A stretch of DNA of 63,421 nt, filler included, from Licmophora abbreviata (Eukaryota): assembly GCA_900291995.1 (NCBI GenBank). It is 13 parts of 13 records of this genome, joined end to end, with 100 filler letters (N's around TTAATTAATTAA, not from the genome) between each part and the next. Parts side by side here need not be neighbours in the genome. Positions count along the whole stretch, not along the records: positions 24,774 to 48,330 come from OLMU01004212.1; 12 more parts are not named here. One strand, given 5' to 3'. The notes below the pieces were generated by a model. That model had not been told where the DNA came from, did no database searches, and saw only the letters and a list, made by a program, of their open reading frames with translations. Each line of letters opens with the position of its first letter. The first letter of the stretch is position 1. The translations under genes and the position numbers were made by a program. Below are positions 20,954-47,144 of the stretch, piece by piece.

Positions 20954-23900
20954 ATGACGCCGCCTCCCGTGGTTTCTTCTTCTCGCCGCAAGCGGCAACG
21001 CAAGATCGTGTCCCACTATTCGGATGACAACCCATCCACCTTTACAGTCAAGGTGAAAAAAGGAGACAAGAATAACAAGGAAACGAGCAGCAGATTCATT
21101 GAAGACTCCACGGATGGTACCACTGCCAAACGCCGCAAAGTTGGTCGACCCAGAAAGCATGCCAGAAGGACCCAAGCTGCTGTGTCACGGAAAGATGCAC
21201 CACAAGCGAACAAGAAAAAGAAGTCTGTGAAATCGCCAACGCCACCAGAATCACAACAACAAGCACAACAACAGCAGCAACACGACACTGTTCTGTCTCA
21301 CGCTTGGACCGTCGTGCCGGTTGTTCCTCCACAGTTACTGCTACTAGACCCCTTATACAACCAACAGCAACAACCTGAAAACCATCCCGTACACGGAAAG
21401 GGCTTGGGAAAGTCTCGAACACTACCAAGACCTTCGTGGGACCTTTTGAACCATAGCAATCCTACCATCCTACCACCCCCTCCTTCACCGCTGCGGGAAG
21501 ATCCCATCACATGCATGACTAGCACTGTGACTGATTCGAATGCCAGCTTCTTTTGCGTGGGGCATGCTTCTGGAAGTGTAAACGTCTATACTACAACTCC
21601 TCGATTGCAGTGTCTTCAAACTGTCTGTACCAGCGCTCTCTCGAGACAGTTGGAAACGATGCGTCGTCACAATGGTACTCTATCTTCTACTGCTACTACT
21701 TCAGCAGCACTCAACAAGAGAATGATGCACTTCTTACATTCGATTCATCGCATGGAGATGACGGAAACAGTCCTGGTAGTCTCCACGGCACAAGAAGTGG
21801 AGTGTTGGGATTTGATGAACTCTAGTGGCGATGCAGCAGCTGCGTCCTCCATTCAGTCTCGACGTGCACTCTGGAGATTCGAACTGCCGAATCCATCTGC
21901 AGTGATTTTGAACGTGCGGGCTGGCTGCACTTCTATATTCAGAATAGGGGGCAGTGTTTGGTGGTATGGGGAGCGCAAAACACGACCAAAAACGAGGAGG
22001 TGGTGCTGTTGAGCTTGTTGCGAGCGTCGTCACCAGCAAGAACGCCACAGCCAGAACTGAATAGTACTGTGACAGAACCTGTCGTGCAGTCCATTTCTCT
22101 ACCAGGTGCCACCAAGTGTGGCGCGGCCACGTTCGATCAAAGTGATGTTATGCGTGGTGATCGACTGCTAGTACTGGTGGAGTGCAGTACCGGTACAAAC
22201 AATGGTATTGCACAACCAGGTGGTACGCAACAGGAATTGCAATTGTTGTCTCGCGACGATGCGTTGCACTATACAGTCTCGTGTCGCGCTGTCATTCCAA
22301 CCAAGGCCAAGTCCAGTTTGGTGGGGAGTGGACTCTCGCAGACGGAGAAGGGTTCCTATACGTTGCTGGCGTGTACAAACAAGGGTGGTGTACGCATCTA
22401 TCAAACCAAGACGTTATTATTACTGCAAGTGTATGGGGAAAGCTTGGTATTGCATGGCAAGACTGTGCAGTGGCAAGAGGGGTTCATGTGGTTTCCAGAA
22501 TACACTAATACCAACGAGCAGCTGCAGGTGTGGAGAGACGATGCTTCTGTGGAACGAGGGGATGAGCTGCAATATCGACAAGCCATTTCTGCTGCTGGTG
22601 GTTGTAAGGAGAAAGAATTGTGTTCATCTGTACCATCACCACCGCCGGGAACTGTGGTAGTGGGGGTGCCCCAGGCTGGCAAGGAGCCAAAAGAATTGCA
22701 GGAGACATTGCATTTGTGGCATTGGTTGGATAATGGTAAGGTGGCAGCACATACCATACCGGGACCGCCCAAGAGTGGTGGAGTTCTGCCTGGATTGATG
22801 TATGCGAATGGATCGTTGTTTTGTGTATCCTACGAACGGGGGGAATTGTGGCAACTTAAGCCTATCATGAAGAGCGACTTTCCGGGAATCATGTATCCTC
22901 CGGGGTATCATGTCGTGGATGACAATGTTGAGTACTTGGAAGACGAGGATGAAGTGGATATTCTCATTGATGGTCACTTGGAAGGGCACGACGAACATGA
23001 GACTGAAGTTGGCTTCATGGCGGAGGTCAGGGCGGACGATCTCGAAGAAGCGATGCGACGAAGTTTGATAGAACAAAGCGCGGCTGCTGTGGAAGAGGAT
23101 GAAGACCCAGAAGGCGAAGACGTAGTGGTAACGGTAGACGATGACACCGACGACTTGGCTTTGACGATTTTGCCCTGCCATCCGGAACCTGGCTTGCGGT
23201 TAAACCTTGAGAACAACAATGCCGACGCCACCGCTTCTCAAGCAGCGCTTGTCAAGGGATCACCGCAGAAGGAAGACCCCTCGTATTCCTTTGTGAGAGG
23301 CGTCCTGAAGTGCTTTCCCCAGCTTGGTGGGGTAAATGAAGCGCGTAGACAGTTGGATGGACGACCGTCGCTGGATGAGCTAGTGGAGATGCCACCTGCT
23401 CCCAAACCTGTGAGAGGAAGGCAAACCAAACGAGTTGGTTTGGAGGCGACGATAAAGGCATCCATACTGCCAGAGCTGCGCAGGCTGATGTTTTCGAAGG
23501 AAGCCTGGACATACGGTGAAGGTTTTGCGTTGCAAGATGTTGACCGTCAGGCCGACTTTGCTGCCGAAACGAAACGGCGAGGGGCAGCTGTCGTGTGTCC
23601 CAAGGAAGCTTCCAAGACTTCGGAGGTGCAGTCACTAGCTGGGTTTTCTGAATCTCACGAGGACACTACGGTGGTAGAAATAGCAAAGCTGACTGTGAAG
23701 GAAGTCGAGAGTCATGCCAGTCGTGAGGATCCCGCCCATCATACTGCATCGGCTGGAGATGACACGGCTAATGTAGAATCTTCTGACGTGAGCGAAGAAG
23801 TAACTCAGAAGATCGCTTCTGCTCATGTTTCCGACGCAGCTGCCGAAGCCTTAGCCGGCATGTTTGCGTTGCATCGGGCCAGCTCGGAGGACGCAGCGTC

Positions 23901-25396
23901 GCCTCGAAAGAGGTCTGCCACCGCCGGAAGCTCACCTCCGGGACCATATGGGTCTGCTCCTGAGACAGAGACTGGGCCTACGAGTGACGATCCTACCGAC
24001 TCGTCGGTAATAATCGACCCCGAGAGTATGGGCAGCTCGCAGGCAATGTCGTCTGATCCGGGGTACGCAGTCTCGGTCGTGGTGGACGTGAATTCAGCTG
24101 CACCGGGAGTAAGCGCATCAGAGACGAAGGATGCTGTGTATGTCCATTGTGATGCGTGTAGGGGACGCATGGTGGTCCACTCGTGTGGAAAACGCGAGAT
24201 CCCTATCGACTACGAAGCCATCGAAAGAGCGGAAGAAGAAAAGCGCCGCAAGCAGGAGGAAGAAAAGAAAAGGCTTCAAGCCGAGAAGAGACGACAGGCG
24301 GATATCCGGAGACGCGAAGCGAAACGATTGAAAAGGGAAGAAGCGGAGCGGCAGAGACAGCAGGAATTGAACCGTGAGCGGGTCCGGGTTCAGGAAATGG
24401 AGGAAGCCCGTCAAGCAGTCGAAGAACAGCGGCATCAAGCCGAACTCGTCAAAGAGAGAAGACGGGCAGAACTTTGGCAGCGGCTCCTGCAAAGCCCGCA
24501 GCAAGTAGAAACGGCGAACGCGTCAAGCTCGCCGTCGGTCCCTCGCGGGTGGCAGACGCTGGGACAGTCATCGTCAGGGCAGCCGAATGCCGTCAGTGCG
24601 GATTCGTCGTCAACCTACACCGGCAATTCTTCTGGATTGGATGTAGAGCTCGAACAAAACTCTTCGCAGAATCNNNNNNNNNNNNNNNNNNNNNNNNNNN
24701 NNNNNNNNNNNNNNNNNTTAATTAATTAANNNNNNNNNNNNNNNNNNNNNNNNNNNNNNNNNNNNNNNNNNNNCTTCTGGATTGGATGTAGAGCTCGAAC
24801 AAAACTCTTCGCAGAATCAAGCCCGCTCTTCGACGTCACGGAATGTATGGGATCAGCAGTGGGCTCCGGAACGAATTCCACCTTCCGCCTCGAACCGGCA
24901 GGTGACATCGCCGGCTTCTACGACACTCTATACATCGCCGTCGGTCCGGACAGCGTCGCACGGCTTTACATCACCCAATAATGACAACGTGACGCAACGG
25001 CAGGAGAGCTCCCTGCACCAGACCACACCACCCATGACGAACCAGAGCACTGCGGATCCTGGGTTAAGCCTGTCATATTCCGATCGTCAACGATTGACTT
25101 TGGAGAGGTGCACTTCAGCTCAATTGGGGACCGTCGAAGCTTTGGCGGCGCTCGCGAATGGATTTGTACAATCCCCAAAACCTACGAGTAATGTATCTGT
25201 GCCTGAATCAGCTACGCCTAATGAAGCCGCCTCGTCGCGACCGGCAAGCCTCCCTCAAGGGACCCTGGGGGCTCCAGGTCAACAACATGGCCCCTCTGCG
25301 ACCAATCAGGCACCTCCCAATGCGAACGGGAATCAGGTCAACAAAGCGGTCGATCGGGCGTCACACTTCGGCGTTGTTAAGGCCAAAGGAAACTAA
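20954..25396 (+). CDS. large nuclear protein: AT-hook, divergent WD40-like region with RBBP5/Swd1-like motif, CxxC..HxC site, coiled coil; apparent frameshift near 21950; spans gap
   Basis: KRRKVGRPRK; SDFPGIMYPPGYHVVDDNVEYLEDEDEVD; CDACRGRMVVHSCG. Confidence 0.6.
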
Positions 25397-25632: not shown

Positions 25633-28610
25633 CTACTTATTGAGCTTCTGCCTTGCTGGGTAGAGACGGCACAAGGTGCGAAGCTCCTCCACGTCGTCCA
25701 CCCACGAGCTTTGATCTCCAACGAAATACAGGTAGTTGGATAGGATTTCTTCTCCTGCACTGATGTCGCGCAGCGACTGGTCCAGGCCAGCATTTAAGTA
25801 TGGCAGGTGCCTGTCGATGAATGGGCTATACATGGAGTCCACAAAATTGTGGCTTTCGAGGGACATGTCCTCAGGAATATTCTCAATATCTGCCGTAAGT
25901 TCAGTTAGAACCGAAGGGTACCCCGTATTATATGTGCCATTGCAGCCGTGGTTCACAAATGTTTGAATTCCGCAGTCTACGCCAATGCCGAGTCCACCCT
26001 GTTGTACGACGTACATGGAAAGGGCACGAAGGGGTCAGTCAGTCGGTATTCAAATCACCTGACACCGACGCAACCGAGGTCGGTCGAAAACTTACGTAGA
26101 CCAAACTCCGAAAGCCGTAAGTTTCTCTGTGTTCGTGGACAGCCAACAGATCCCTTGCCTCCTTAAAGTTGTTCTCAAGTCCCTCCAATACTTCTAATGT
26201 CGAAGGCATAATTTGAACGGGATGGACGGAATCCTCCGCGCCGATATAGGAACCTTCAGAGATATCAACCTTCGCGAACACACCACGGCCCGACGCTACT
26301 TCACTCAATCGCACCTCAAAAGATGAACTTGGGAAATTGGGTATATCCGCATCAAACTGAAGGTCCATCGATGTGCATTCTTCCGGTGTTGGTTCTTGTC
26401 GACAAAACACAATCTCCGTAGATTTCGACGGGACTTGATAAGCTACCATGGTAGGACCATCAAAATACTCGAAGGGGAGACGACCGCTCTTTGTTCGTTT
26501 CGCACGCTGCTGGATTGCAACCTGCACTTCTGCTTCGTTGGCATACCAGCTAGCTCTGGTATCATAATCTTTGAATGCCACGGCGTAGCTCCAGGCACTG
26601 GAGAAGCCACAATGAGACTGCAAACAAGTACGCGTCAGTAAGCGCATGTCCCCATGCTAAACTTCGATGAAACCAAACCGATGTCGGACTTACTTCTTCG
26701 TATACATTTATGCTCTCAAATCCAGCGTCCTCCAGCAACGTAAAGAGTTTAGAACGACCGGCGAATTTTGAGGTATTCTCTGCAGGGTGATGGATTTCAG
26801 CTGAAGCTCCCAGCTGGATAATAATCATCCCCTCTTCAGAAAGCCCATTGTACAAGGCTTTCGCAAAACTCAGGTCGTCATAGAGTGCTTTGGCGAAGCG
26901 AACGTCTGTTTCGGGGTCCCTGTTAGAAGAAGAGCAAGCGTGAGGCGAAAAGACAGTGTCAGCGATTTCAAAACGGTGCAACGATCGAAAGTTCAGAGAT
27001 AACTCACAACGCATCCATAATGATAACATCGAGAGGTTCAAACAGCATCTCCCGGCCGCCATAGCGATCCAAGAACCATGCGAAAGCATCCCCGTTGACA
27101 ATACGAGCCCTTGGGTCATCGCCACACCAATCCGCGCTGTCCACTAGGTCGCTGCAATCCGACCACTCTGGAAGATACTCTCTGGATGCGCTCACTATGA
27201 CTTCATCAATTTCAATGATGGTTGCTTCCTTGACAGTATTGTGCTTGAGGACCTCACGAAGCGTAGACCCCTCTCCACCCCCAATGATGGCCACTCGCTC
27301 GGGATTGGAATGAGCAAACATCGCTGGATGGACCAGACCCTCGTGGTAGGCTGCATCGGCTTGAAGCCTTGACTGCATCTTGCCGTCTAAGAAAAGTATA
27401 CGATCGGGTCGAAAGAGTTCCGGGTGAAGTGACTCGTACGAGCCGTCCCCGGAAAGGGAACGTCGATACTTGGCAGCTTGATTGGTTCGTGGGATAATGA
27501 CGTCAAAGATATCGAGCTGCTGGTACTCGGATTGAATCGAAGCGACCTTGTGTAAAGCAAATGAACGAAGAAACGGCTAGTGAGATCAGCATGTGGGTAG
27601 GTTGCGTGGAATGATTGTTGGTGGAGTCTCCATCTTACCGATTTCTTCATCTCCAGGTCGATATCCCCCAATATATGAACACCCATGTCCCACGTCTCCA
27701 GCGGACCAGACTTGTGAGGCCGGAACCCTCGAAGCTTGTGTGCCCACTTAACTTGAACCTGCTCATTGTCGTCATCTTCCCGAGATTTCCTCTTCTGCGC
27801 GACTCCAAACAATCGTTCGATAAGTGGAACGACGGGAACCAGCGGATTGGATCCGCAGGTGAACAAGTCGAGCGTAATGACACCTTCAGCGGGCCAAGTA
27901 TGGAAGGACACATGACTCTCCAACAAGACACCGACGCAGCTGACACCTGCTGGCACAAGCCTGTGGCAATGATAGGACAAAAGTGTCAATGACGCCTCAT
28001 TGACGACGTCTACCATTGCTCCGGCAAGCCTCTCTTCTGAATTCAAGAAAGACCGATCGACATTCTTCATGTCCACGAGCAAATGCTGTCCAGCAGGCAA
28101 GTGCTCCTCGTCGTCGTCATCGTCATCTCCTTGGTACGTCTCCACTGCATCCGGATCTCTCCCCCTGGAACACTGTTTCGATCCGTCTTTTCTGTCGACA
28201 CACACATGATGCAGTTCCTCAAAGTCGTGGTCCTCTTCTTCACTGCTTCGCCGAATGAGAAGTGACGCGCTCGTCGCAGTACGTGCCGTGTCAAAGTTCT
28301 TGGACGTATATACAGTCTTTGGAACAGGCCTTCCCTTGCGTGCGATCGGGGGAGGCAGCGGGGCGTATCCCTCGGGGTGGGAGTCGGGACGATTGCGCAG
28401 TGTCGATTGGTCGGGTGGAGCAAGCAGGGCACGTCGGGGTCCTTCCAAGAGGATGATGCGTGCTGCGCGGCCCACGGAGAAGGCCAGGAGCACGGTGGAC
28501 AGAAGACCGAAGAGAATGAACTTGAGGGAAACCATGACAACGTAGGGTCTTTCTTCTGGAGGACGGGAAACGGTCGCCTCATGGCTCGCATTGCTGTTGG
28601 CTGCGACCAT
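25633..28610 (-). CDS. AdoMetDC-aminopropyltransferase-SET fusion (long-chain polyamine synthase type); introns 27547-27638, 26920-27007, 26618-26693, 25999-26095
   Basis: GQHLLVD; GVLLES|HVSFHTWP; LDLFTCG; YHEGLVHPAM; IIGGGEG; DVIIMDALDP; GRGVFA; FVNHGC; RDISAGEEILSNY; introns restore one frame. Confidence 0.93.
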
Positions 28611-29184
28611 CAGATTTTTGACTCTCGTTCGCGTCAAAATGAACCAGACTATCAGCTAGCTCAGGAGAGCTCTGAATGCAGTACTGCAATCAGATGAGGG
28701 GAGTAGTATGCTGCCTGGTGAGAGGCTGAACCGTTCGCCTGGGGTGAGAACGATGACGGCATGACGGCTTATCGCTCATCGTCGTGCCGCGGCTGCCGCG
28801 GTCTTATCTTTGCTGGCTCGGTCTCGACTCACTCGACTCAATAACCTAGCACCCCACAGTCGAAAAGGAAAAAGAAAAACAGGCTTTGCGTCCCTCGTCG
28901 ACTTGACTCACTCAACTCGTCTACTTTCTCGTCTCGTCTCGTCTCCGCCATGCTATAGCACCAACGAGCCTGCCAACAAAATTGTTCAGTGTGATAAAAA
29001 ATAAATATCGCACTACTTGTTACAGCTCTTGTGGTCCCCATGTTAGTGTAAGAAGCTCCGGATCCTGAGTTAAGATAGCGAATGGCGACTCGCCAGTACC
29101 TGTTCTGTACCTGGTACTGTTCAGGTTTGATGGGTCAACCCAAATCCAACGCCAAAGTTCGTGTTTCATATCTCTAGAGACAGA

Positions 29185-31934
29185 CTACAGCTCTCTGTCA
29201 TACTCAGTCGACCGTCGTTCCGCGCTTGGTCCGTCTGCTGGTGCCTCGATGAGTGTAGGCCCATGTCTTTCGCTAGCAACGACCCCCAAATGATTTCCCA
29301 GGATCTCTTCTCCAGATCGAATGTCTCTTAGTGCAACTGTCCCACTAGGAAATGGCATGTGAGAATAGCGCCTGTCGGCTACGGGATTATAGATTTCATT
29401 CTTCGCGAGACCCGTTCCCATACTCGTGGACTCGTCCGGAATCGTCTCGCCCACTTTCGATCCCTGGGAGGGAGCAGTTGTGACCCCAATGCTGGGGGTC
29501 CCGCGATAGCCCCGGTTCGCACTTGACGAGATGACAAATCCCGATTCAGAATTTACCTCCTCCGTTCCCTACAAGAAACGACAGCAAAATGAGATCACGA
29601 CAGCTGCTGCTTCTGGTAGCTACGTTCGACCTATTCTTGCAACTTACCTGAATGTGTTTCACGGTTCCATATTCATCCATGAAACGACCCAGCGACTCTT
29701 GATAAACTCCAACAAGAGAGTGACCTTTGAATTCGCCGAGAATATTAACGACGGAAGGAGAGAAATGAACGGGATAAACGGCACTTTCAAGATCCACGTA
29801 TGCACCTCCGGGAATGTCAGCAACGGCAAACACACCAAGGCGGTCTTCAAGCTGCCTGACCTCGAGGGATGATGCCGCAACATTCGGGCGTTCCTGATCA
29901 AATCTCCCAACAATTTCACATTCTTCTGGAACCGGTTCTTGTAGACAATATACATGCTCCCAACCTCGAGGGGGAATTTGATAGGAAGCCATGGTAGAAG
30001 CGTCAAAGTATTTGAGAGGTACCTCCCCAGACCTTGTATGTATCATCCGTCTCTGTATCTCAAGCTCGATCCGTGCCTCGCTAGCGAACCATCTCTCCCT
30101 GCTGCGGTAAGACTTAAAGGCTACCGCATAACTCCAAGGCCCGCCAAACCCAGCATGAGGCTTAACAAGTAATACATAGATTCAAAGAGAGGCCAACGTA
30201 TATCAGACATGCGCATCACATTCGACCGCCACACAAGAAAGCAAATGCAACGACACTTACTTCTTCAAACACATGTAAACTTTGAAAGCCAACGCTCCCG
30301 AGCAAGCGACGAATAGTAGCTCTGTTTTTGTTTTTCGATAATTGTTCTGGCGGATCGGTGTAGTCAACCGTTTCTCCGAGCTGCATCACAAGAACGCCGT
30401 CGGCCGGAAGCGCCGTGAACAACGCGGTCATGAATCTGTCATTGTCATATAGAGCTTTGGCAAATGGAATCTCACTCTCTGGGTCACTGCATTCAACAAT
30501 GCGAGAAGTGGGAGGAGCAAAGTCGAGCCAGTCAGTCAACGTTTCACAACAGCAGCAACATAGTCCATTCGCATTCCAAAAGGTAGCGAACTATACTCAC
30601 AGCGCATCCATGATAATCACATCAATCTTCTCCTCGTCCGATTCCGGATCGCTGTATCGACTGAGAAACCACCCGATCGCGTCTTCGTAGTACATTCGAG
30701 ATCTCGGGTCGTCTCCACACCACTCTGCACTTCCGACCAGGTCACTGCAATCAGACCATTCCGGAATAAACTCCCGCGACACGTTCACCATAAGTTCATC
30801 AATTTCCACCATGATTGCCTCCTCGATGGACTTGTGCTTGAGTATCTCTCGAAGCGTCGCACACTCCCCTCCTCCAATAATCGCTGCCCGTTTCGGGTTC
30901 GGGTGTGCAAACATGGCGGGCTGGACTAGAGCTTCGTGGTATGCCGACTCGCCGTAGCGAGTGGACTGCATGACCCCGTCCAAGAAGATGTATCGATCGG
31001 GTCGAAAGTAGTCTGGGTGGCGTGATTCGTAAGTGTCGGTGGTCCAGAGGGATTGTTGGTAGCTCCACCGATTCCCAACCCTGTGGCTGTCGCGCGGCAG
31101 AATGACATCGTAGACGTCAATACGCTGATAGGGGGTCTGTACGGTCGCAATCCTTTCCTTATATTGGGCATCTCCATCGGACACAATATACAATTCCAAG
31201 TCCGTCTGAGGAGCAAAGGCACGACCCGCCACGGCCCATTGGACAATGGATTCCCTAGAAACATCAAACACCTCCTCGAGCACGTTGAGTAGGTGTGCCG
31301 AATCCTGTCGAAACTCCGAAATGACATACAAACACACGGTCGACCCGTACTTCGGAACCGTGTACACGTGAATGTCTCCGCCGACAATGATTCCTGTACA
31401 ACCAATGCCACCCAGACGTCGAAAGGAGTGACAGGAATACGACAGAAGATCCAAGTCGGCTCCCCCGACAAAGTCAAACAAAGCTTGGATCAACCGATCT
31501 TGGGCATGATAGGCTTCGGGTACGTTGCGAATCATGACTTCAAAGTCGTGTGGATAGTATTGAACATCATAATTTTCTTCTTCTTCTGGCTCATCATCAT
31601 CGTCATCACTTTCGTCCTCGTCCTCGTCATCGTCATAATGCTCTTCTGCCCACTCGATTCTCTCTGCTATAGTCTCCTCGGCACACTGCTCCAAAGGATT
31701 GTCGCGCGAGCCGCAGAGATGAACCCAGTCGCCAGCACTACGAATGTTCATGGCAGTGGTCGTCTCTTGCATTGTCGTCTCATGCATTGTTGTTGCTATC
31801 TGTCGTCCAGCATGGAATGCGAGAGACATTGTCAGTATCAATGACACGAGCACGGTTGGCAGTGATATAGATCTGCCGCGTGAAGTTAAAGTGCGGTCAG
31901 CATTGTTGGTAGATGTGGATCTTTCTGGACTCAT
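29185..31934 (-). CDS. paralogous aminopropyltransferase fusion with degenerate AdoMetDC and SET domains; introns 30487-30600, 30161-30260, 29569-29647
   Basis: YHEALVQPAM, IIGGGEC, DVIIMDALDP retained; AdoMetDC site reads GIIVGGDIHVYT; SET reads ANRGY and EILGNH. Confidence 0.9.
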
Positions 31935-32488
31935 TGTTCAATTTTTTTCTTCGGGTTTGTCCTTGTTGCTCATCACAGTGCGGTGGCACAAGTCTTCTTC
32001 TTCTTCTTCTTCTTCGTATTGCACTACCCGGTAACACGGTAGGCTGTCGTATATATGAACCTGATCGCTTTGCAGCGTTGACGATGATGAGAGAGAGTGT
32101 GAGTAAAGCTTGGTCGCGGCGAGCGGAACTTCAAACTTGCGAATTTGCAAATTTGGCTTGGTTCGAAAAACTGGGTGAAATTGACCCGAAAGTATGCTCG
32201 AGCTTAATGCACGAATGAAATATTATACTCTATTTGGTACGCAAACCTTGTAAACGAATACCGGTATGAAAATTTTCAATATAAAATACGCATAAACATT
32301 TAGGGACTAGGCCGTTCAACGGTTGAAGCGCGTGGGGCCCGCTCTCTAAATTTGGCCGGCCACATCTCGCCACCCGAAAAGCGTCAAAAACCAGACAACA
32401 CACACAAGACAGGGCAGACAGCGTTTCCTTCGAGTCAGTCAGTCGACTTGTACGATACATTCATGCTACCTAATCTCTCCTTTCTACC

Positions 32489-35382
32489 ATGGCAGACGCG
32501 ATGAACTCGACCTTCGGGACCGACGATGACGACGGCTTTGTCGGTTACGTGCCCACAACGACCGATCCAGGGATTGCCATCGTGCTTGCCACGGCAATCT
32601 TTTGCTTCTTGTCCAATGCCATTTTACCCTGCCTCGTCAGTCTGGGACGACGCTACGAAAAGCGACGTCTTGCGGCAGTGCAAGTCAAAGAGGAACAACG
32701 AGAAGAAGCGGTAATGATAGAGCAAGGCAAGCCAGCAGGAGAGGACGCACAGGCCGAGCAGTCGCACATGGAAGACGGTATCTCGGTCACGTACTCGTCC
32801 TTTCAGCGAGGGACTGCGACCACTCCTGTGGTCGAAAAGCCAATTTCGGCATTGCAGAATGTCTTTGATAAGGTATGTACATATCCAAACAACACGAACC
32901 AAAAACTAGTGTTTGTCGATTTTTTTATCTCTCAGAATCCAAATCATTCAAACTGCTATGCATACATCATCGACTGCTCTTAGATCATCATGCCTCCGTA
33001 CCCCGATGACAACTCGGTCCTCCGTGGAGGAGCAGGGTCGACTCTCTCCATGGCCAACAAGAGTGCACTTTCCACCGGAGCTCAGTCCCAAGTCAGTTAC
33101 AGTGCTTCGGCCATTTCTCACGCGGCCACCACCGTGCTCGACGCTCCCGGAAAGAGAACTCGTGGATATGCCCGACAGCGACGTGCCCTCATGGACCGTG
33201 CACGGTGGATGGAAGATGCTCGCCGAGAGGCGGAACGAGACAGACAACCACAAGTCATGGACGATCGACTGCCCGCGACGGCCAACGAACTCGCCAGTAG
33301 GAATCCTCGTCGCAAAAATCATCCCGTCGACACTGCCTCATCGTCGCTTCCTGGAATGACTGCCAGTGAACTTGCCGGTGTACCAAAGAGTCAGCGGCTG
33401 CAAGCGGCTTCGTCCATTGCTGGAGGCAAGGCGACAAGCGAACTAGCAACCCGACGTGGTGCCTCGGATACTATGAATCGCAGCGAGGTGGGGTCGCGTC
33501 TGACCACCACCTCGTCATCCTACGTCCGTGGGGGTCGTCGTCGTCGTCGTCGAGGACCCGCCAGCAGCCTTCTTTCCTCGTTACGACGAGACCAATCTCC
33601 GGAACCCTCCGTTTTGAGCAAGCTGGAAGATCACGTCGTGTCGCCCATGGATGCTCCGGATGCCTATGATCCTGGTCGTCCCAAACCAGCCACCATGATG
33701 GCAGGGGATGAGGAACTGGATCTGTGTTGTGGACAGCATGCGTGGTGGAAACCTGCCATGATGGGGAGAGGTCTTGATACACTTATATCCTATGGTGAAT
33801 GGGACAGGGAAATGAAGCGTATCGTCTCCATTTCACTGTCCCTGTCCGTGGAAGGGTTCTTGATCGGACTGGTGGACACTCTTACTGTGGGGATCGTTGC
33901 TGCGTATATTGGAACGGATGCGGTGGCGGCATACACCATTGTCGGGCTTGTCCTGGGGGGACTTCCGTCCGAGTTCTTTGGAGGATTCCAGGCTTCTGTT
34001 GGTGTACTCTGTCCTCAGGCGTATGGAGTAGGAAGCGACAGGCTCGCTGGACAATACGTTCAAGTGGGGGCCATCTTATATACTTCTTGCATGATTCCGA
34101 CAGCCGTGCTTGGCGTGCTATTCTCGGATGACATTATGAGGTTGTTTGGATTCGATGATGTAACCGTAGATATTGCGAGAAACTATGCTCCCTGGTTGTT
34201 TGTTGGGGAAATCATTGGCGGCCTGAGTGACTGCTACCACGAGTTGCTCGAAGTTATTGGGCATGAACAGTATTGCATGGTTGTGGGTGTCACGGAATAT
34301 CTTGTTGGATTTGTAATTATCCTTTCTGTCGTCCTCACCCAGGACAATGTTACGCTGAGAGATGTCGGTATCATTCATACCATCACGTCCATCTTCTTTT
34401 CAATTGCCAGTGTGATGTTTGTGGTGTGGAAAAAATGGATGGTCCCCTTTCATCCAGGAATCTTTCGTACCTGCGCGTTTTCTGTACGTGGTAGAGTGTG
34501 GCTCGCAGCCTGCTCGTGATTGTGCCCTCGCTAATGTCGCCCAAACCACTTCGTTTGTCTTTGCTGTGTCGCGCAGAATCGCAAGGCCGTCATGAACGTC
34601 GTCAACACCGCACTTCCTCTGTCTTTTGGGTTTCTACTGCAATACGGCGAGGTACGTCGTCTGCCATCCTTGTCTCTTTTCTTCTTTTCTTCAAAGTGAT
34701 TGCAACTCTCATTGCTGTCTTTACGCAACAGTGGGAAGTCTTGACTGTCTTTGCTGCCTTCATGGGTCCCGCGGAAGTTGCTACCTGGGGCGTCTTAGGG
34801 ACGCTGTGGGAGGCTTTCGAGTCAATGACGCAAGGGGTATCAGACGGAGGAGAAATTCGAGTTGCATACCACTTGGGTGCCGCACGACCGGCCCAGGCAA
34901 AGAAGGCAGCGTACAAGGCCGTAATTTTTGGTGTATTTATGGGCTGTCTCTTTACATCCATCATCTTTGTCTTCGGACAGAATATTGCCGTGTGGTTTTC
35001 ATCTGACCCCGCGCTACAGCACCTGATTGCCGATTTAATACCACTGATTGGCATTGGAAATATCAGTCTCACTGCCGGGAGTGTTGCTTGGGGTCTGGTT
35101 GGAGCACAGGGTCGATATCGGCTTGCGAACGCAGTTGCATTCATATCGAGTTGCCTCATCACTCTACCACTTGCGGCGCTCTTTACATATGGTATCAACT
35201 TTGATCTTAAGGGCTTGACCTCGTCTGTTGTTATTGGATACTCGGTGACCAATACAGTGTTGCTATACATTATGATTCGGTCGGACTGGGACCGTCTTTC
35301 AAAGATTGTTGTTGACATGCATGCGTCTGATGAAGTGGATGAGGAAGACGACAACGAGCAAGAGCTATTGCCTGTCACGTGA
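32489..35382 (+). CDS. MATE family transporter with long N-terminal extension; introns ~32873-32983, ~34484-34577, ~34651-34731
   Basis: IGTDAVAAY, LCPQAYG, WEVLTVFAAFMGPAEVA, IRVAYHLGA, GAQGRY; about 12 TM helices. Confidence 0.9.
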
Positions 35383-35556
35383 GCTGGACGTTGTCATACA
35401 AGTCGAGAGTGCCGTTGCGCTTCAACCACCTATTGTCGGCTTGTACCTTGAACCAGTGGCGGGCGCTCTAGAACGACAACATTGCAATAGCTTCAAGAAC
35501 AGCTAGACCGCACTTTCCGTGACTATTTTTTTTTGCTATTCAACTTTGTGTTTCAT

Positions 35557-37812
35557 TCACATCGATGGAACGTTGTACCGTTCTCTCCAGTCATTCGGGA
35601 TTTCCGTATTTGGAATCGTTCTGTAGTTTTTGTAACCATCACGCCAAATTCGCGCCCCTTCCTTTAACAAGGAGTCGGGGATCAACGTGGATGGATAGAA
35701 TTCGAGCTCCGATACCATGTATTCGACAGCATCGATTCGCTCTCGTTCTGACGTGTCGTCTCGCAGAGACCCTGAGGGCACACCGACAAGGATATCTACA
35801 CGGAGCATATCCTTGTGTGAAGCGACTCGTTCCGCAGTTTCGATCACCTGCGACCAGTCCACCCATTCTGGTATCGACCGTTCAAAACTGCCGCGTGCCA
35901 AGCTGCCGTCTCTCCGTACAATCCCAGGATCCCACATGTAGTGCGGAAACCACCTCTTCTTCCAAACCGAACAGTACCACTGCGCGACCCATGCCTTGCC
36001 CCAAATGACGAAAACTTTGAATTCCATTGCCGAGGGCTCTTCCGGCGATTCGCATCGCAAACCTCGATCCCAAGAATGAATGCGCTCTTCGATCACCAAG
36101 CCTGGTTGGACATTCAGCAGCACCCACGACTCCCATTCATCAGGTCGTTCGTAGACACTATTGGCTAGACTGGTCGCCACATCGTGGTACGTATCGTAGT
36201 TGCGGTGCTCTTTGTACTTCATTCCTGTCTGACTAATCAACACCGAGTCCTCCTGCTCGGTATTGTGATTCACTATCCACAAGTCGTAACTCTCCGCCTT
36301 GTGAGAAGGCTTCGCCACGAAGTCTGTTCTGTTATCACTCGGAAGCAAATCCAATATACTCTTGTAGTACTCAAATTGCACGTTTTCACATGGAAGTTCC
36401 GAAGCATAGCTTAATGCAATGAGGGGAGGTATCGTGACTTTGTGGTGCACTGGAAGCCAGCGCTTCAGAGCTACCTTATCCTCGTAGAATGAAATTGTCG
36501 GATTTTTTAGCCTCCCACGGTACTTCATAATGTCCCACCACCCTTCGTCGCCCTTGACGGATCGACCAATATCAAAGTCTTCAAACAATTCAAAAGGCTC
36601 TTCGAGCGTGTCTTCCTCGGGTTGATCCACTAGTGCATGTCGCATCGCCTCGACCAGAGCTGAGTGGTACTGTCGAATGATTTCAAGCTCATGCGACGGC
36701 ACATTGTCGGGAGAATCGAGCGCGTCCAGTTCTCGCACCTCTTTCAGGCGTTCCAATTCGTCCCGCAAAGCCTGAAATGCAGCTCGATGCGTCGGCTGGC
36801 CCTCGGGCCAAACGACCGTCAGGCTTTCATTCTTCTTTGGAAGCCCTGCACGGGCTTCTTCCAGCTGCACGACAATGGTGTGCCGCCTCCCCTGATGATC
36901 ATTCAACTGAAATTGAAAAAGCTGCGGTAGTTCCTCCACTATCCCTTGATCCAGCAAGTGTCGAGGTGTCCCCAGTGGCTGCCCCATTCCGGTAGACCAA
37001 TGAATAGGTTCATCGGCAAGTATATCTCGCGATGCGACAAGTGCAATGTCGCTTCCCACATGGTAGGATGCAAGCCTTGTATTAAAATAGTCACCGTCGC
37101 GATGTGTATAGACTTCCATCCATGGCACCATGGTTTCTTGCCATTTGTCTCCAGCAGGAGTCTGTAGGCCATTGGAACGGTGTGCAATCGTCATTAACGC
37201 AATCCGAAATTCCACATGATGGTTGGTGAGCTTTGCTGCATCCCCACCACCAAGACAACTCTGTAGATACCACGTCCAATGAGTACCCACATCACGAAGA
37301 GGCAAGTGCTGGCCGAGTATCCTTCCGATGAGTAGCTCCCGACCTGCCTCGGTCCATCCGTCTGGGAGTAGGGCTGGTCTGTGAATATACAGTTGTTCCA
37401 GCCAGGCCAGATAGGGACCAAATTGCGTTTTGAAATTATCATCCTTGTACTTGTTGTATTCCCGCTGCACTGCCTGAATCGTGTCGCACAAGTTGTCCGA
37501 TTCTGGGTCTTCGGGTGCCACAATGAGCTTCCAGGGAATGCGGGCGAGTTCTGTACCAGCAGGAATGAATTCTGTTGCGTAAACTTTGCGACGAGACTTG
37601 TCTTTTCGAAGCACAGCCTGGCGCTCGTCAATGATTCCCCCATTGGCATGAATCCAGTCAACCAAGTTTGTCAAGACGCGCTGTTCTTCGTCCGGTAATC
37701 GCGACGACGGGTGGTCTTGGGCTTGAACAAGTCGAGTGTGAGACAGCTGTATCAGAGCTAGAACCACGAGCGACGCCGCGATAAGGAATGCTCTTCTCAT
37801 CGACAGACCCAT
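35557..37812 (-). CDS. secreted/ER fusion of an LSMT-like (pseudo)SET domain and a TupA-like ATP-grasp domain
   Basis: Signal peptide; DWIHANGG, IPAGTELARIP, MVPW..YTH, ASRDI; EDKVALK, FVAKPSH, LVIEE, EFKVFV, LRVD, SELEFYP. Confidence 0.7.
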   Translation of the reverse strand: MGLSMRRAFLIAASLVVLALIQLSHTRLVQAQDHPSSRLPDEEQRVLTNLVDWIHANGGIIDERQAVLRKDKSRRKVYATEFIPAGTELARIPWKLIVAPEDPESDNLCDTIQAVQREYNKYKDDNFKTQFGPYLAWLEQLYIHRPALLPDGWTEAGRELLIGRILGQHLPLRDVGTHWTWYLQSCLGGGDAAKLTNHHVEFRIALMTIAHRSNGLQTPAGDKWQETMVPWMEVYTHRDGDYFNTRLASYHVGSDIALVASRDILADEPIHWSTGMGQPLGTPRHLLDQGIVEELPQLFQFQLNDHQGRRHTIVVQLEEARAGLPKKNESLTVVWPEGQPTHRAAFQALRDELERLKEVRELDALDSPDNVPSHELEIIRQYHSALVEAMRHALVDQPEEDTLEEPFELFEDFDIGRSVKGDEGWWDIMKYRGRLKNPTISFYEDKVALKRWLPVHHKVTIPPLIALSYASELPCENVQFEYYKSILDLLPSDNRTDFVAKPSHKAESYDLWIVNHNTEQEDSVLISQTGMKYKEHRNYDTYHDVATSLANSVYERPDEWESWVLLNVQPGLVIEERIHSWDRGLRCESPEEPSAMEFKVFVIWGKAWVAQWYCSVWKKRWFPHYMWDPGIVRRDGSLARGSFERSIPEWVDWSQVIETAERVASHKDMLRVDILVGVPSGSLRDDTSERERIDAVEYMVSELEFYPSTLIPDSLLKEGARIWRDGYKNYRTIPNTEIPNDWRERYNVPSM

Positions 37813-38085
37813 GTTCTCAAGTGTACGACGACGGCTGATTGAGGCGACAGCATCGGTCCGCGGGGGCCACAAAAGTAGTCTAGAAGACCATACTAACTTC
37901 CATTTCACGGTCGGACCAGGTTATCTCATTGTCGAGTTGAGTTTGAAGTCAGTTCCGTTCTGGCTTGTTTTTTGGAAACGGGTTTTACGCATGACGGACG
38001 GACTACATAGAAGTCACCCGGATGCAATGACGTGTTCGGCCGACCGCTCGATTCGAAATCATAGCTCTCACTTTCTTTCGACACC

Positions 38086-39858
38086 ATGGCGACGAGAAAG
38101 ACGGTGTTGCTCGCGTTTCTGGCCCTGCTTCTAGCTCCGTCTGAAGGTTTCTCATCAATTCTCCATGCGGGGCCATCGTCAAGAACACACCACTGGCTTG
38201 CGTCTTCGTCGTCGTTGAACCAAGACGCGGTGGGCGTTTCTACTACTACTACTACTACTAACAATACAAAAAGCGCGTTCCGGCAGGCGCAAAACTGTAG
38301 CGTCACGTTCCCACCCTATTATGATCTCAAGGACTTGAGGGCTGGACAGCGTGTGGCATCGGATGTCTTTTCGGTGACCGGTTTCGATGGTACCCAGCAG
38401 CACTCCTTCCGTCTCCTGCTCTATCCCCGTGGTGGCGGACATGCCGCGAGCAAGACGAATTCCAAGCAAGAAGACGGTGGTTTCGGCATGAGCTACAAGA
38501 TTCTGCCCATGCTTTCGTCCACCGGTAATGAAAGAGTGGGACTTTACGTACAGTATCTTCCCAAGACACCCGATGAATCGGTCGATGCTTCTTTCTCCTT
38601 GCGACTTGTAGGACAACAGGCAACTGGGCCCAAGTTTGATGTCGAGTGGACCGCCGGAATGAGGTTTGTGGACTCGGCTCTGCAAAATTTAAGAGAGGGT
38701 CAAGCAAACGACTTTGGCGCGCATATTATGGAAACAAAGCTCTTGTCCACGTTTCTGGGCATTGCTGATGAGAGCGAATTGGAACGTAGATTACAAGTTA
38801 TGGTACAAATGACATTACATCCAAGGGTATTACTATCCGACGATAGCTCTGGGAAAGGAGGGATCCTCGAGTCGAAAACGAAGAATCAAGTACCATTTCG
38901 TGATGTCTTTCCTGTGCGAGACATCCGTGCATGCTCAGAGGCAGAAGAAGTATCACACGATCCAGAACGCGTTCGCGTCGGTAAGATTGTTGTTCCTGTC
39001 TTGCGCCGTCTCAGCCAACGACCTCGCATGTTTGAGCTAGGTGCCTATCCTGGAGTCGAGTATCGCATCATGCGCATCTTTGACCCCATCACGGGCGGAG
39101 AACTCTTCAACTCAGTCCCTGGAGCAGACTATGAACTGAAACCGATTTATCCTTTAGTGGATCAGCTCGAGCGTGACTGGCCCGTTCGTGTCAACGAGCG
39201 CGAAATTCCTCGTTTGTATACAGCCGGAATGTACAATGCCATTTCCGCAATTGGTTCCCTGTTCACTGCCATTGGAGGTTTGACAGCCGCCTTTGTTATC
39301 TCGCAAGCTGTGTCGCTGTTTTTCATACCATCCCGATCCATGGATCCTACATTACAAGTCGGCGATGTTTTGGTCGTGGAAAAGGTGACTCCTCGATTGT
39401 TTCACGGCGCGAACAAAGTCGGTGATGTCGTGCTCTTCTCTCCTCCAACAGGACTGCGAGACATTGTCTCGGCGAACGGTGGACGCATCGCAGATCGCGA
39501 TTTGTTCGTCAAGCGTGTCGCCGCCGTACCTGGAGACACCGTTACTGTGGATCGTACCGGGTCTGTACGAGTGAATGGAGAGGCGGCATCCGATGGTCTG
39601 CGAGACATGTGTGGTGCTGAACCTCTGCGACTCATTGAGAGATACATTCAGCCACAAGAGAAGAGATTGATCGTTGACGGACAAGTTTTCGTGCTAGGTG
39701 ACTGCAGTTCCGTTTCGATTGACTCACGCGTATGGGGACCTCTTGAGTCCAATGATATAGTCGGCCGACCCGTGGTGAGGATTTGGCCACTGGAAAGGTT
39801 CGGACCTGTACCGAGTCTTGTGCCTGTGGAACTCATGCAAAGCGAGTGGAAAGACTAG
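38086..39858 (+). CDS. plastid type I signal peptidase (thylakoid processing peptidase-like, S26) with N-terminal MATH-like domain
   Basis: Signal peptide ending SEG-F; FRLLLYPRG..VGLYVQ; IPSRSMDPTL (Ser), FVKRV (Lys), VFVLGD, SIDSRVWG. Confidence 0.88.
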   Translation: MATRKTVLLAFLALLLAPSEGFSSILHAGPSSRTHHWLASSSSLNQDAVGVSTTTTTTNNTKSAFRQAQNCSVTFPPYYDLKDLRAGQRVASDVFSVTGFDGTQQHSFRLLLYPRGGGHAASKTNSKQEDGGFGMSYKILPMLSSTGNERVGLYVQYLPKTPDESVDASFSLRLVGQQATGPKFDVEWTAGMRFVDSALQNLREGQANDFGAHIMETKLLSTFLGIADESELERRLQVMVQMTLHPRVLLSDDSSGKGGILESKTKNQVPFRDVFPVRDIRACSEAEEVSHDPERVRVGKIVVPVLRRLSQRPRMFELGAYPGVEYRIMRIFDPITGGELFNSVPGADYELKPIYPLVDQLERDWPVRVNEREIPRLYTAGMYNAISAIGSLFTAIGGLTAAFVISQAVSLFFIPSRSMDPTLQVGDVLVVEKVTPRLFHGANKVGDVVLFSPPTGLRDIVSANGGRIADRDLFVKRVAAVPGDTVTVDRTGSVRVNGEAASDGLRDMCGAEPLRLIERYIQPQEKRLIVDGQVFVLGDCSSVSIDSRVWGPLESNDIVGRPVVRIWPLERFGPVPSLVPVELMQSEWKD

Positions 39859-44395: not shown

Positions 44396-45011
44396 TTCTA
44401 GGTAAGTAAAACAGCTCACATAGGTAAACACGGCAGTCCAAGGCGGATCAAGGTCTTCCTCATTGCATTGATTTTAGGCAAGAGTAATGAGAGACGAGAG
44501 GGTTGAGAGGGTGACGAGATGCCAGCAAGATTCTCGAAAATCGAACCATTCGACTCGACTCACTCAATCGCGTGGACCCGTCCGTCCCTCGGCAGGACAC
44601 TGGTAGCTTGCAGTGCGCGCGCGCGTGCCTAAACTTCGTTAGAGCACGATGTTTACTTTGTATTAAAGATTTAATATTATATAAGTACACAAAACACGTA
44701 CATGTCTTTAAGTATCTCGAAATATAGTCTTAAGTCACGTATGCCGTATTCAGGCAGGTCCGTTTGAGATTGGTCCTGGATGTGACGCCGCCACAAAATT
44801 GCTCGCTCGCAGAAAACGTTTTGTCTCACTTTTTCCTGCTTTGTTGCACCGCATCATTAGATTTGTTGTTGACGAACCTCAACGCGATCCCTTCATCGAC
44901 AAAGACTCCCTCCTACACTTCAGCCCGGCAGCCTTGAGTGGCGCCTACGAATCGACAAGACACGGCAAGAAGTCAAAACTTTCAATTCATTTTGAATTCA
45001 AACCAAACACA

Positions 45012-47144
45012 ATGGTCAGAACGATGAACTTTCTTGCAGTCCTGTGCCTCCTCGTCATCAGTCCAGTGCTTGGTCAGCATCAATCGCTGAATCGTCCCAC
45101 GGGAGCGCCGTCTCTGTCTCCGGCCCCGACCATGACGCCAGTCCCGACAAGTCCATCGGCGGCGCCCACTGAGACCACGGCACCGAGTCCAAGTCCTTCT
45201 GCGGTCCCTTCTTATTCGCCTACCGGTACTTCACTTCCAACGCTCACTCATTCAGTTGCACCAACTGACTCTCCTGCTCCCAGCCCTAGTCCTAGTGCAA
45301 TGCCTTCCTACATGCCCTCCCACTCACCTTCGATGGTTCCCAGCGTCTCCCCGTCTGATGTGCCCTCGGAGTTTCCCTCAGTCAGTCCTTCGACTGTGCC
45401 GAGCGCAACGCCCTCTGTATCATCCGCTCCATCAGCTGCACCGTCGATTTCGTCAGCTCCAAGCGCGGCTCCTTCCACAACACCGAGTGTGAGTCCGAGC
45501 GAGCAACCCAGTGGGAGTCCTTCTGCGGCACCGTCCCTTTCTTCCCAACCAAGTGTGTCGCCGTCCAATGCCCCTTCGGACCAGCCATCGATGTCTCATG
45601 TCCCCTCAGCCCAGCCGAGTGTTTCGCTTGAGCCATCTTCCAGTCCTACCGAGGCACCGTCTACCGCGCCTACCATCTTTCACGACAAGCTCAAGACCGT
45701 CGTGGCTATAACGTTCGACAGCTTGGATAGTCCTATTCAGGGCAATGCGTTGCTGGCGTTTGAAAAGACGACATTAGCTTTTCTCCAGGTCAAGGCTAGT
45801 GCTCCTAAGGACTTCACACTCGCGTTTACAAGTGTAAGTGTGACAGAGCAGACCTTCATTCCTCATCGTCGAGAGTTGGCAACTGGCTCCAGACGGGTCC
45901 TTCATGATCCTGGATTGCGAATTCGTGTGAATGTCACGGCTGACATCATCCCAGGAAAACCCCCCGCCGGCTTTTCCTTCACCGATACTGTATCGAAGAC
46001 GCTCTTGGATAACTACGTCGAGTACACTGAGGCACTGGAAGCAGACGATCCGTACTTTGGCGACGTTGCGGTGGTTGCAAGCTCCACGACTGACATTCCG
46101 TCGGACAAAGTGACAGCTGGTAAAGCTGCTGGAATAGTTGTAGGTGCATTCGCTGCATTGGCCATTGCCGTCGGCTCTGCGTTTTACGCCATCCGTCACC
46201 GCGACGTAGTGTATGCACGAAGTGTTGGGTCCGTCGCCAAAGATGATGACCCTTACATGATCGGCCACAGCAGCTCTGGCTCGACGGATGCTACTCCGTA
46301 CCTTGGGCCAGGAGTCACCATGAACCCCACAAGTCCGAATTCATTGGAAGGGGGTAGGGCTCTTGGGGCGATGCTCCCACGATCGTACTCCATTTCATCC
46401 GGTGTCTCCAAAGACTCGCAACCTTCGAAGAGCTCCCTACGATACAGCGAAAGCGGTGGTACAGGGCAGCCGAAGTCTCTCCTAGACACTGTGGTGAGCG
46501 CGGATGAATCAAAGGAAGAGGAGGCAGATGCTGGAAGCCTTGGGTCAATTCTCACGACGGAAGTGCTCTCGGCTCACTCTGGAAAGAAAGATCCTCCGAC
46601 GGGGAAAGTGGCTTCGAAACAGAACCCTCCAGGCACCCTCCTTGGCATCATTCGAACGCTACCTTCCAGCTGCTTTTCGTCAGATGACGACCTGAGTCAC
46701 ATTGCTGGGGAGGATATTGATACACCCGCTTCGAATACGTCGTCGCTCTCTTCCTTCACAGAGTTCTTGGAGAGTGAAGGAAGAGAAAAGACTCTCGGTG
46801 CCCGTCCAATGGGAGAATCGGAACAGACGCAGTATCGAGAGTCGCATTCGACCGGCAGTGCACCGTCAATGAAGAAGGAAGGCATTTACGACGTGTTTGC
46901 ACCTCCTGGCCCGCTGGGCATCGTTGTCGACACTACGAAGAATGGACCTGTCATTCATTCCATGAAATCCTCTTCTCCCCTTCTGGGTCTCTTAGCTCCA
47001 GGCGATCTGATTATTGCTTTGGACGACATGGATACGCGTGGGATGACGGCAGCCACCCTCACACGCATGATGGCCAAGCGGTCGCACGAGAAAGAGAGAA
47101 AGATTACTCTCCTTGCGTTGGGAACTGGTTCAGACTACGACTAG
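45012..47144 (+). CDS. type I membrane protein with PSxxP mucin-like stalk, TM and C-terminal PDZ domain
   Basis: Signal peptide; about 190 aa of PSxxP repeats; TM GIVVGAFAALAIAVGSAFYAI; APPGPLGIVVD...GDLIIALDD. Confidence 0.85.
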   Translation: MVRTMNFLAVLCLLVISPVLGQHQSLNRPTGAPSLSPAPTMTPVPTSPSAAPTETTAPSPSPSAVPSYSPTGTSLPTLTHSVAPTDSPAPSPSPSAMPSYMPSHSPSMVPSVSPSDVPSEFPSVSPSTVPSATPSVSSAPSAAPSISSAPSAAPSTTPSVSPSEQPSGSPSAAPSLSSQPSVSPSNAPSDQPSMSHVPSAQPSVSLEPSSSPTEAPSTAPTIFHDKLKTVVAITFDSLDSPIQGNALLAFEKTTLAFLQVKASAPKDFTLAFTSVSVTEQTFIPHRRELATGSRRVLHDPGLRIRVNVTADIIPGKPPAGFSFTDTVSKTLLDNYVEYTEALEADDPYFGDVAVVASSTTDIPSDKVTAGKAAGIVVGAFAALAIAVGSAFYAIRHRDVVYARSVGSVAKDDDPYMIGHSSSGSTDATPYLGPGVTMNPTSPNSLEGGRALGAMLPRSYSISSGVSKDSQPSKSSLRYSESGGTGQPKSLLDTVVSADESKEEEADAGSLGSILTTEVLSAHSGKKDPPTGKVASKQNPPGTLLGIIRTLPSSCFSSDDDLSHIAGEDIDTPASNTSSLSSFTEFLESEGREKTLGARPMGESEQTQYRESHSTGSAPSMKKEGIYDVFAPPGPLGIVVDTTKNGPVIHSMKSSSPLLGLLAPGDLIIALDDMDTRGMTAATLTRMMAKRSHEKERKITLLALGTGSDYD

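Follow-up and report, generated by a model that had tools for sequence, protein, structure and literature searches.

Five predicted genes lie between positions 25633 and 39858 of a 63,421-nucleotide stretch of DNA from the diatom Licmophora abbreviata (NCBI GenBank assembly GCA_900291995.1), the whole of which is referred to here as the window. In order, they encode a protein in which an S-adenosylmethionine decarboxylase (AdoMetDC) is fused to an aminopropyltransferase and a SET domain (G1), a paralog of this fusion (G2), a MATE transporter, a protein that combines a SET module with an ATP-grasp module (G4), and a type I signal peptidase (G5). A first-pass annotation had described these genes, in this order and on one gap-free contig, as a candidate long-chain polyamine cluster. 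The layout is as it described, since all of the elements are present at their positions and there is no N within 25633..39858, the nearest N run being at 24730-24773, one of 24 runs of 44 N in the window. Splice models (short GT-AG introns) and start codons were predicted from the sequence, and 6 of the 14 stop-to-stop open reading frame (ORF) pieces of the region have Pfam matches (AdoMet_dc, Spermine_synth twice, MatE twice, and Peptidase_S26). The explanation to which we give a slightly better than even chance is that G1 and G2 are a functional, anciently paired duo of a complete and a partly dead synthase, with G4 as a plausible third member, the MATE transporter unassigned, and G5 unrelated.

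The synthase pair

The first member of the pair, G1 (25633..28610, minus strand), is an AdoMetDC-aminopropyltransferase-SET fusion of 874 residues, modeled as five exons (28610-27639, 27546-27008, 26919-26694, 26617-26096, and 25998-25633, stop included) and four GT-AG introns of 92, 88, 76, and 97 nt with the donors GTAAGA, GTGAGT, GTAAGT, and GTAAGT. Its exons match the Pfam families AdoMet_dc (1.7e-23) and Spermine_synth (1.9e-25), and each of the three parts has its motifs intact: the Glu-Ser self-cleavage motif LLESHVSFHTWP, characteristic of class 1b AdoMetDC; the aminopropyltransferase motifs IIGGGEGS and IIMDALDPE, which correspond to GGGE and DxLDP; and the SET motifs GRGVFA, FVNHGCNGT, and GEEILSNYL, which correspond to GxG, NHxC, and ExxxxY. 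The proposal that G1 is a complete three-part fusion is therefore borne out. Single exons of G1 give no significant match to Pfam SET because an intron splits this domain. The closest relative in the collections that we searched, P0152, has all three Pfam domains (SET at 2.4e-6) and is only 62% identical to G1, and the proteins of the window itself are absent from these collections, which therefore contain no close sequenced relative of L. abbreviata. More generally, the family to which G1 belongs consists of proteins 800-1000 residues long that combine the Pfam domains AdoMet_dc, Spermine_synth, and SET. In five G1 relatives scored against the Pfam SET cut-off of 22.4 bits, the domain passes in P0152 (28.3 bits), P0153 (25.8 bits), and P0155 (27.8 bits) and falls below in P0156 (20.2 bits) and P0157 (22.2 bits). 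The G1 relatives with these same three domains come from diatoms, as do the named relatives of the central genes, which belong to Arcocellulus cornucervis, Helicotheca tamesis, Epithemia clementina, and the MMETSP diatom transcriptomes. The nearest solved aminopropyltransferases are 7xif, 1uir/3anx from Thermus thermophilus, and 2e5w; the specificity of the Thermus enzyme is broad, and it takes part in making long polyamines.

The second member, G2 (29185..31934, minus strand; 818 residues in four exons, 31934-30601, 30486-30261, 30160-29648, and 29568-29185), lies head to tail with G1, its stop codon 574 bp from the G1 start. The two proteins are 37-40% identical, and the three G2 introns coincide in alignment position with three of those in G1. 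G2 keeps the aminopropyltransferase (Spermine_synth at 1e-22, with the motifs IIGGGE and IIMDALDPE) and gives no match to Pfam AdoMet_dc even at E ≤ 1. Where G1 has its Glu-Ser motif, G2 carries IVGGDIHVYTVP, and the decarboxylase self-cleavage site is thus lost. The SET motifs are lost as well, SANRGYRGT replacing FVNHGCNGT and GEEILGNHL replacing GEEILSNYL. A frame error, which was considered as a cause of the lost SET motif, was rejected because the remaining two frames do not encode the motif.

How old this pair might be was apparent from a FastTree tree of 69 rows, from which P0289 was left out as too divergent. In this tree, G1 pairs with P0152 (SH-like support 98), and G2 falls into a clade (support 96) with six relatives, none of which has the Glu-Ser site. 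These separate placements argue that, judged by their sequences, G1 and G2 are paralogs that diverged long ago and have remained neighbors. The first-pass annotation, which had called G2 a tandem paralog, was right that it is an adjacent paralog; a recent copy it is not, to judge from the placement of the two proteins in the tree. Nor is G2 alone in this, since the Glu-Ser site is missing in 21 of 68 family relatives (including P0153, P0155, and P0265-P0281), while GGGE and DxLDP are kept in nearly all, and one tight clade of seven has FRxGxGxVSLxAWP in place of the Glu-Ser site. From these sequences, it seems that diatoms regularly have paralogs with a dead decarboxylase.

Both synthases have a hydrophobic N-terminal stretch—residues 24-42 in G1 and 22-40 in G2—in agreement with the earlier claim that both have N-terminal membrane anchors. 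In G1, the flanking charge is +3 after the anchor and 0 before it, and this more positive flank would place the catalytic part in the cytosol according to the positive-inside rule.

Diatom fusions of this kind are already known. As described in papers that cite Michael 2011 (FEBS Lett 585:2627), they consist of a bacterial class 1b AdoMetDC, a bacterial-type aminopropyltransferase, and a SET domain, an architecture that G1 shares and from which G2 differs by the loss of the decarboxylase and SET motifs. These fusions have been proposed, not shown, to make long-chain polyamines (see also PMC6356823, in its accessible part). Both G1 and G2 belong to this diatom AdoMetDC-aminopropyltransferase(-SET) family, and in this sense the earlier assignment of both synthases to the type linked with long-chain polyamines agrees with the literature, as far as the accessible text of these sources extends. 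In the literature that we searched, we found no description of complete and partly dead members of the family side by side.

In the explanation that we favor, G1 would decarboxylate S-adenosylmethionine (AdoMet), transfer the aminopropyl group onto an amine acceptor, and use its C-terminal SET domain for N-methylation, as its intact motifs suggest. G2 would most likely be an aminopropyltransferase in which the dead decarboxylase-like and SET-like parts serve as scaffold or dimerization surfaces, by analogy with human spermine synthase. Because G2 keeps aminopropyltransferase motifs only, it would depend on decarboxylated AdoMet supplied by G1 or by another enzyme. In human spermine synthase, the dead AdoMetDC-like N-terminal domain is essential via dimer formation, according to the accessible text of PMC12803844. 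G2 resembles the human enzyme in joining such a domain to an aminopropyltransferase and differs from it in having a membrane anchor, an additional dead SET-like domain, and an adjacent complete paralog. G1 and G2 might form a heteromer, and the pairing of trypanosome AdoMetDC with its "prozyme" offers another analogy. What the two would most likely make together is N-methylated polyamines, possibly of the long-chain type, on the side of an endomembrane that faces the cytosol.

The SET and ATP-grasp protein G4

G4 (35557..37812, minus strand), which is two genes away from the synthase pair, is a single exon encoding 751 residues. Its hydrophobic N terminus (residues 3-21) is signal-peptide-like, and the protein would thus be expected to enter the secretory pathway, as read from the N terminus itself rather than with a signal-peptide predictor. 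Pfam has little to say about G4: the SET match reaches only 0.022 (15.6 bits, below the cut-off of 22.4), there is no ATP-grasp match, and the PF14305 model is not significant, with one of 35 family members reaching 0.011. A word-index protein search with G4 returned a single match, and a full HMMER search yielded 477 relatives at E ≤ 0.001, of which 207 reach 1e-10 and 65 reach 1e-30; they match the modules separately, at residues ~30-400 or ~400-750. At the level of the fold, the claim that G4 joins a SET to an ATP-grasp module holds.

First, the SET module (residues ~30-395), modeled from 31 sequences with a pLDDT of 88.5, aligns with SETD6 (3qxy_A; Z 22.9, rmsd 4.2, 302 aligned), a protein of the plastid RNA polymerase complex, SETD3 (3smt; Z 20.8), and Rubisco LSMT (1p0y_C; Z 19.3). 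The next class, SMYD, follows far behind at Z ~11. As modeled, the N-terminal module of G4 is a SET domain of the LSMT/SETD6/SETD3 class with an LSMT-type C-terminal substrate-binding domain. It is comparable with the diatom-specific BacSET group of Nemoto 2020 (Mar Biotechnol 22:551), as described in papers that cite it, in that it belongs to a large, paralog-rich SET family whose members mostly bear signal peptides; G4 differs by its ATP-grasp module and by the lack of the final Tyr of its family.

Second, the C-terminal module (residues 396-751), modeled from 35 sequences with a pLDDT of 89.2 and a pTM of 0.90, gave 89 Foldseek matches at E ≤ 0.001, the top ones being ATP-grasp proteins (E ~1e-5, TM 0.34-0.49). 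VIA-align paired it with DcsG (6jil_B; Z 13.9, rmsd 3.6, 212 aligned), and the 50 matches listed were all ATP-grasp proteins, including Ddl, ArgX/LysX, RimK, carboxylases, carbamoyl-phosphate synthetase, and PPIP5K/Asp1 kinases. K501, E575, R577, E597, D668, and D673 (K107, E181, R183, E203, D274, and D279 in the numbering of the family alignment) are invariant or at least 90% conserved, and we read the conserved Lys, Glu, and Asp residues from the alignment as probable nucleotide- and Mg-binding positions. G4 thus shares with the TupA-like, Ddl, RimK, LysX, ArgX, and DcsG ligases both the ATP-grasp fold (Z 12-14 over ~210 residues) and the Lys/Glu/Asp positions; unlike TupA-like ligases, it is eukaryotic, secretory by its N terminus, fused to a SET module, and without a significant Pfam match. 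Among 30 matches of G4 by Atlas features, 29 fall in PF14305 clusters with scores of 0.90-0.92, which is a lead only. A PDB sequence search with the G4 ATP-grasp profile found only a chance match (E 0.26).

Evidence linking G4 to the synthases comes from its SET family. Among 31 G4 relatives scanned with Pfam, 16 have SET, and 9 of these 16 also have Spermine_synth; of these 9, AdoMet_dc appears in 7, with a score above the cut-off in 4. A domain search of 158 proteins returned 98 with ATP-grasp only, 39 with SET only, 8 with SET and aminopropyltransferase, 5 with SET and ATP-grasp, and 8 of the G1 type. The SET-aminopropyltransferase fusions connect the SET family of G4 with the chemistry of polyamines, or with the same substrates, independently of gene position, and G4 therefore plausibly shares the substrates of the synthases. 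In addition, according to the accessible text of a study of Seminavis robusta (10.1101/2020.11.23.393678), the peak of 24 diatom-specific SET genes and 8 AdoMetDC-aminopropyltransferase genes coincides with that of cell-wall genes, at the time when the wall is formed.

These findings bear on the alternative that the neighborhood arose by chance—only G1 and G2 being related, by descent, with the MATE, G4, and G5 genes as ordinary neighbors and the G4 family acting outside polyamines—which we take seriously and consider rather unlikely. The fusions raise the link between G4 and polyamines above that of a random neighbor, and the co-phasing of SET and fusion genes in the accessible Seminavis account speaks in the same direction. 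What speaks for chance is that stand-alone modules account for 98 (ATP-grasp) and 39 (SET) of the best 150 G4 relatives, and that the ATP-grasp family extends beyond diatoms: Haptophyta is the commonest taxon in the best Atlas cluster for the G4 ATP-grasp module, and two of the metagenome loci discussed below have a GC content of 0.63.

In the explanation that we prefer, G4 would combine a SET module of doubtful catalytic competence with an apparently active TupA-like ATP-grasp ligase, judged from conserved residues, in the secretory pathway. It may plausibly act on polyamines, or on lysine-rich wall proteins that bear polyamines, and form an ATP-dependent amide bond. ATP-grasp enzymes form amide bonds, whereas the known links between polyamines and lysine in silaffins are alkyl links, and covalent attachment of polyamines by G4 is therefore a guess.

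The wider family of G4 also shows some other arrangements. In large fusions, two G4-type SET modules are combined with an aminopropyltransferase (P0121), an Agenet domain is added (P0110), or ShK domains form the C terminus (P0112 and P0145). A 2.9-kb metagenome contig (L005:206-2767) carries two consecutive ATP-grasp relatives of G4.

The transporter, the signal peptidase, and the wider window

The MATE gene (32489..35382, plus strand) encodes ~870 residues in predicted exons at 32489-32872, 32984 to ~34487, and a last one reaching 35382; its first intron (32873-32983, donor GTATGT) is clear, and its second (~34488-34651) is uncertain. It diverges from G2 across an intergenic region (31935..32488) that might contain a shared promoter and measures 554 bp from ATG to ATG, which matches the ~555 bp given earlier. 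At its other end, the gene converges with G4, the two stop codons being 174 bp apart. Both MatE repeats are found by Pfam (3.5e-19 and 1.4e-15), several hydrophobic segments lie in the first half of the protein, and the nearest Atlas clusters are eukaryotic MatE (best cluster score 0.98), with Bacillariophyta as the commonest taxon. A PDB sequence search with 229 residues of the MATE core gave no match at E ≤ 0.001. The protein shares the two repeats with eukaryotic MATEs and differs from them at its N terminus, where the portion encoded by 32489-33800 places an additional hydrophobic segment and ~340 residues of low-complexity Ser/Arg/Ala-rich sequence before the core. MATE transporters exchange organic cations for protons or sodium ions, and one of them, ERC1 of yeast, affects AdoMet accumulation. 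The L. abbreviata protein is a genuine candidate for such an antiporter, for which we found no link with polyamines, including in the literature searched on MATE transporters and diatom polyamines.

The place of the MATE gene is central to a more ambitious alternative, in which the locus is a full pathway cluster. G1 and G2 would make and methylate long-chain polyamines, the MATE would use proton antiport to move polyamines or AdoMet across the membrane that encloses an acidic compartment, for example the silica deposition vesicle, luminal G4 would modify or ligate them, and selection would keep the genes together. In its favor, four non-homologous genes lie within 12 kb with compatible predicted chemistry and topology (cytosol-facing synthases, an antiporter, and a luminal enzyme), G2 and the MATE gene have the 554-bp divergent region in common, and the SET family of G4 is fused to aminopropyltransferases elsewhere. 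Set against this, we found no evidence for the substrate of the MATE, and the amides expected of an ATP-grasp enzyme do not correspond to the alkyl nature of polyamine-lysine links. We regard this alternative as improbable, also in view of the neighborhood comparisons and family sizes that are described below.

G5 (38086..39858, plus strand), which is separated from G4 by a divergent intergenic region of 273 bp from start to start (37813..38085), is one ORF of 590 residues. It matches Peptidase_S26 (2.6e-30) at residues 404-574, and its translation contains the motifs SRSMDPT and KRV, corresponding to the Ser/Lys dyad. Its PDB sequence matches are to bacterial signal peptidase I only (for example 4nv4 and 1b12), which indicates an organellar type rather than the signal peptidase of the endoplasmic reticulum (ER). 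A role for G5 as the ER signal peptidase that processes secreted products was considered and rejected on the grounds of this bacterial Ser/Lys type. The N terminus presumably reads as a signal peptide followed by Phe, which we take to be typical of diatom plastid targeting. G5 is thus probably an unrelated neighbor, as the first-pass annotation had allowed, and so clear a stranger in the locus counts in favor of a neighborhood assembled by chance. The first ~380 residues of G5 (38086-39240) match no Pfam family and, by sequence, no solved structure.

The same can be said of the remainder of the window, which is gene dense and has a GC content of ~0.50. Outside the locus, 9 of 25 ORFs match Pfam, and these represent unrelated families (dynamitin, GT49, PLD, RING, RCC1, sulfotransferase, and GNAT), which is also what chance would lead one to expect. 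Family size matters too. Nitzschia inconspicua has 32 aminopropyltransferase-domain fusions, as stated in the accessible part of the source, and since both the fusion and SET families are large, it would not be rare for a member of one to lie next to a member of the other by chance. As a rough figure based on approximate gene totals, this would have a probability of ~2-20% per genome, and the choice of the window was itself post hoc; both points count against a selected full pathway.

Some features of the window stand apart from these questions. The GNAT acetyltransferase ORF (2670-3551, plus strand; Acetyltransf_1 at 2.4e-16) lies 22 kb upstream by window position; some GNAT-family enzymes acetylate polyamines. 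Three long ORFs, at 21826-24672 (plus strand), 44712-47144 (plus strand), and 12979-15009 (minus strand), encode 949, 810, and 676 residues, respectively, and match no Pfam family at E ≤ 0.001. Finally, 12 sites in the window (e.g., 1809-1908, 24674-24773, and 60978-61077) consist of paired 44-N runs with 12 bases between them, none of which is in 25633..39858, and these look like masks or scaffolding marks rather than natural sequence.

Weight of the evidence and significance

Several observations weigh against the paired-synthase explanation, with G4 as its third member, that we favor. First, the catalytic motifs of the SET module of G4 appear degenerate. Its NH motif reads YTHRDG against a family consensus of Y[NS]HRNG, and ADEPIHWST takes the place of the consensus AGExIYxSY, which leaves G4 without the conserved final Tyr. 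In the six proteins with both SET and ATP-grasp (G4, P0002, P0004, P0006, P0011, and P0045), Asn-His is kept in one and the His in three, and five are without the final Tyr, the sixth being unaligned at this position. Without this Tyr, the SET module of G4 may not methylate. On sequence grounds, we put the prospect that it still does so at about even or lower, and it may instead bind substrate for the ligase. Moreover, a relationship between G4-type and G1-type SET domains was not detectable among the 158 proteins in which it was looked for. Second, some of what we propose for the synthases is open to other readings. In the FastTree tree, the branches of the clade that contains G2 are long, and this clade could be an attraction artifact, and the cytosolic orientation of G1 is read from flanking charge alone. 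Third, we know of no enzyme of the G1-type family with a demonstrated product. A bacterial fusion of the G1 kind has been reported to yield norspermidine, not a long chain (PMC6356823, accessible part), and a 2025 JBC paper, in the text that is accessible, calls the diatom fusions an area needing study.

The fourth and last group of observations concerns the neighborhood. Among 30 metagenome loci fetched via ATP-grasp relatives of G4, of which 9 are at least 6.6 kb, tblastn found no relative of G1, G2, the MATE (first 629 residues), or G5 in any locus, the matches being G4-like only. The 33 neighboring ORFs from seven of these loci belong to no related Pfam family and include P450, dynein, HLH, and cyclophilin instead. 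That ATP-grasp relatives elsewhere adjoin such housekeeping genes, in a neighborhood that is not conserved, is what would be expected if G4 were in this locus by chance, and it further reduces the probability of a full pathway cluster. However, the ATP-grasp relatives in the metagenome loci are distant paralogs (≤41% identity) rather than orthologs of G4, which makes this a weak test. In L. abbreviata itself, the three upstream regions that were compared have no common 8- to 12-mer and share no more than random triples do, and thus offer no common promoter motif to a pathway that would be maintained by selection.

Of what is described here, the fusions themselves were already known. What is new relative to the literature searched is the pairing of a live with a partly dead synthase, the secreted SET-ATP-grasp architecture with its degenerate SET module, and the co-location of these genes. 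Neither such a cluster nor a fusion of SET with ATP-grasp is described in that literature, which did not extend to supplementary files.

Long-chain polyamines have a central part in the formation of silica by diatoms, and to our knowledge no enzyme that makes, moves, or attaches them has been shown experimentally. The locus in L. abbreviata offers a concrete list of candidates for these roles: a complete synthase with its partly dead partner, a secreted SET-ATP-grasp protein, and a cation transporter. The most far-reaching possibility, which we consider very doubtful, is that of a selected silica-polyamine cluster in which heteromeric live/dead synthases would set chain length and methylation, the proton-coupled MATE would load polycations or AdoMet into the acidic silica deposition vesicle, and a luminal enzyme made of a SET-derived reader of lysine or polyamine and an ATP-grasp ligase would join polyamines to acidic wall proteins by amide bonds. 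If it exists, such a biosynthetic gene cluster would be the first for a component of a biomineralization matrix. Short of this, the partly dead partner could explain how the synthase is regulated or how chain length is set. If the link between G1, G2, and G4 holds, the question of how diatoms make and attach their long-chain polyamines would become directly testable by knockouts and heterologous expression.

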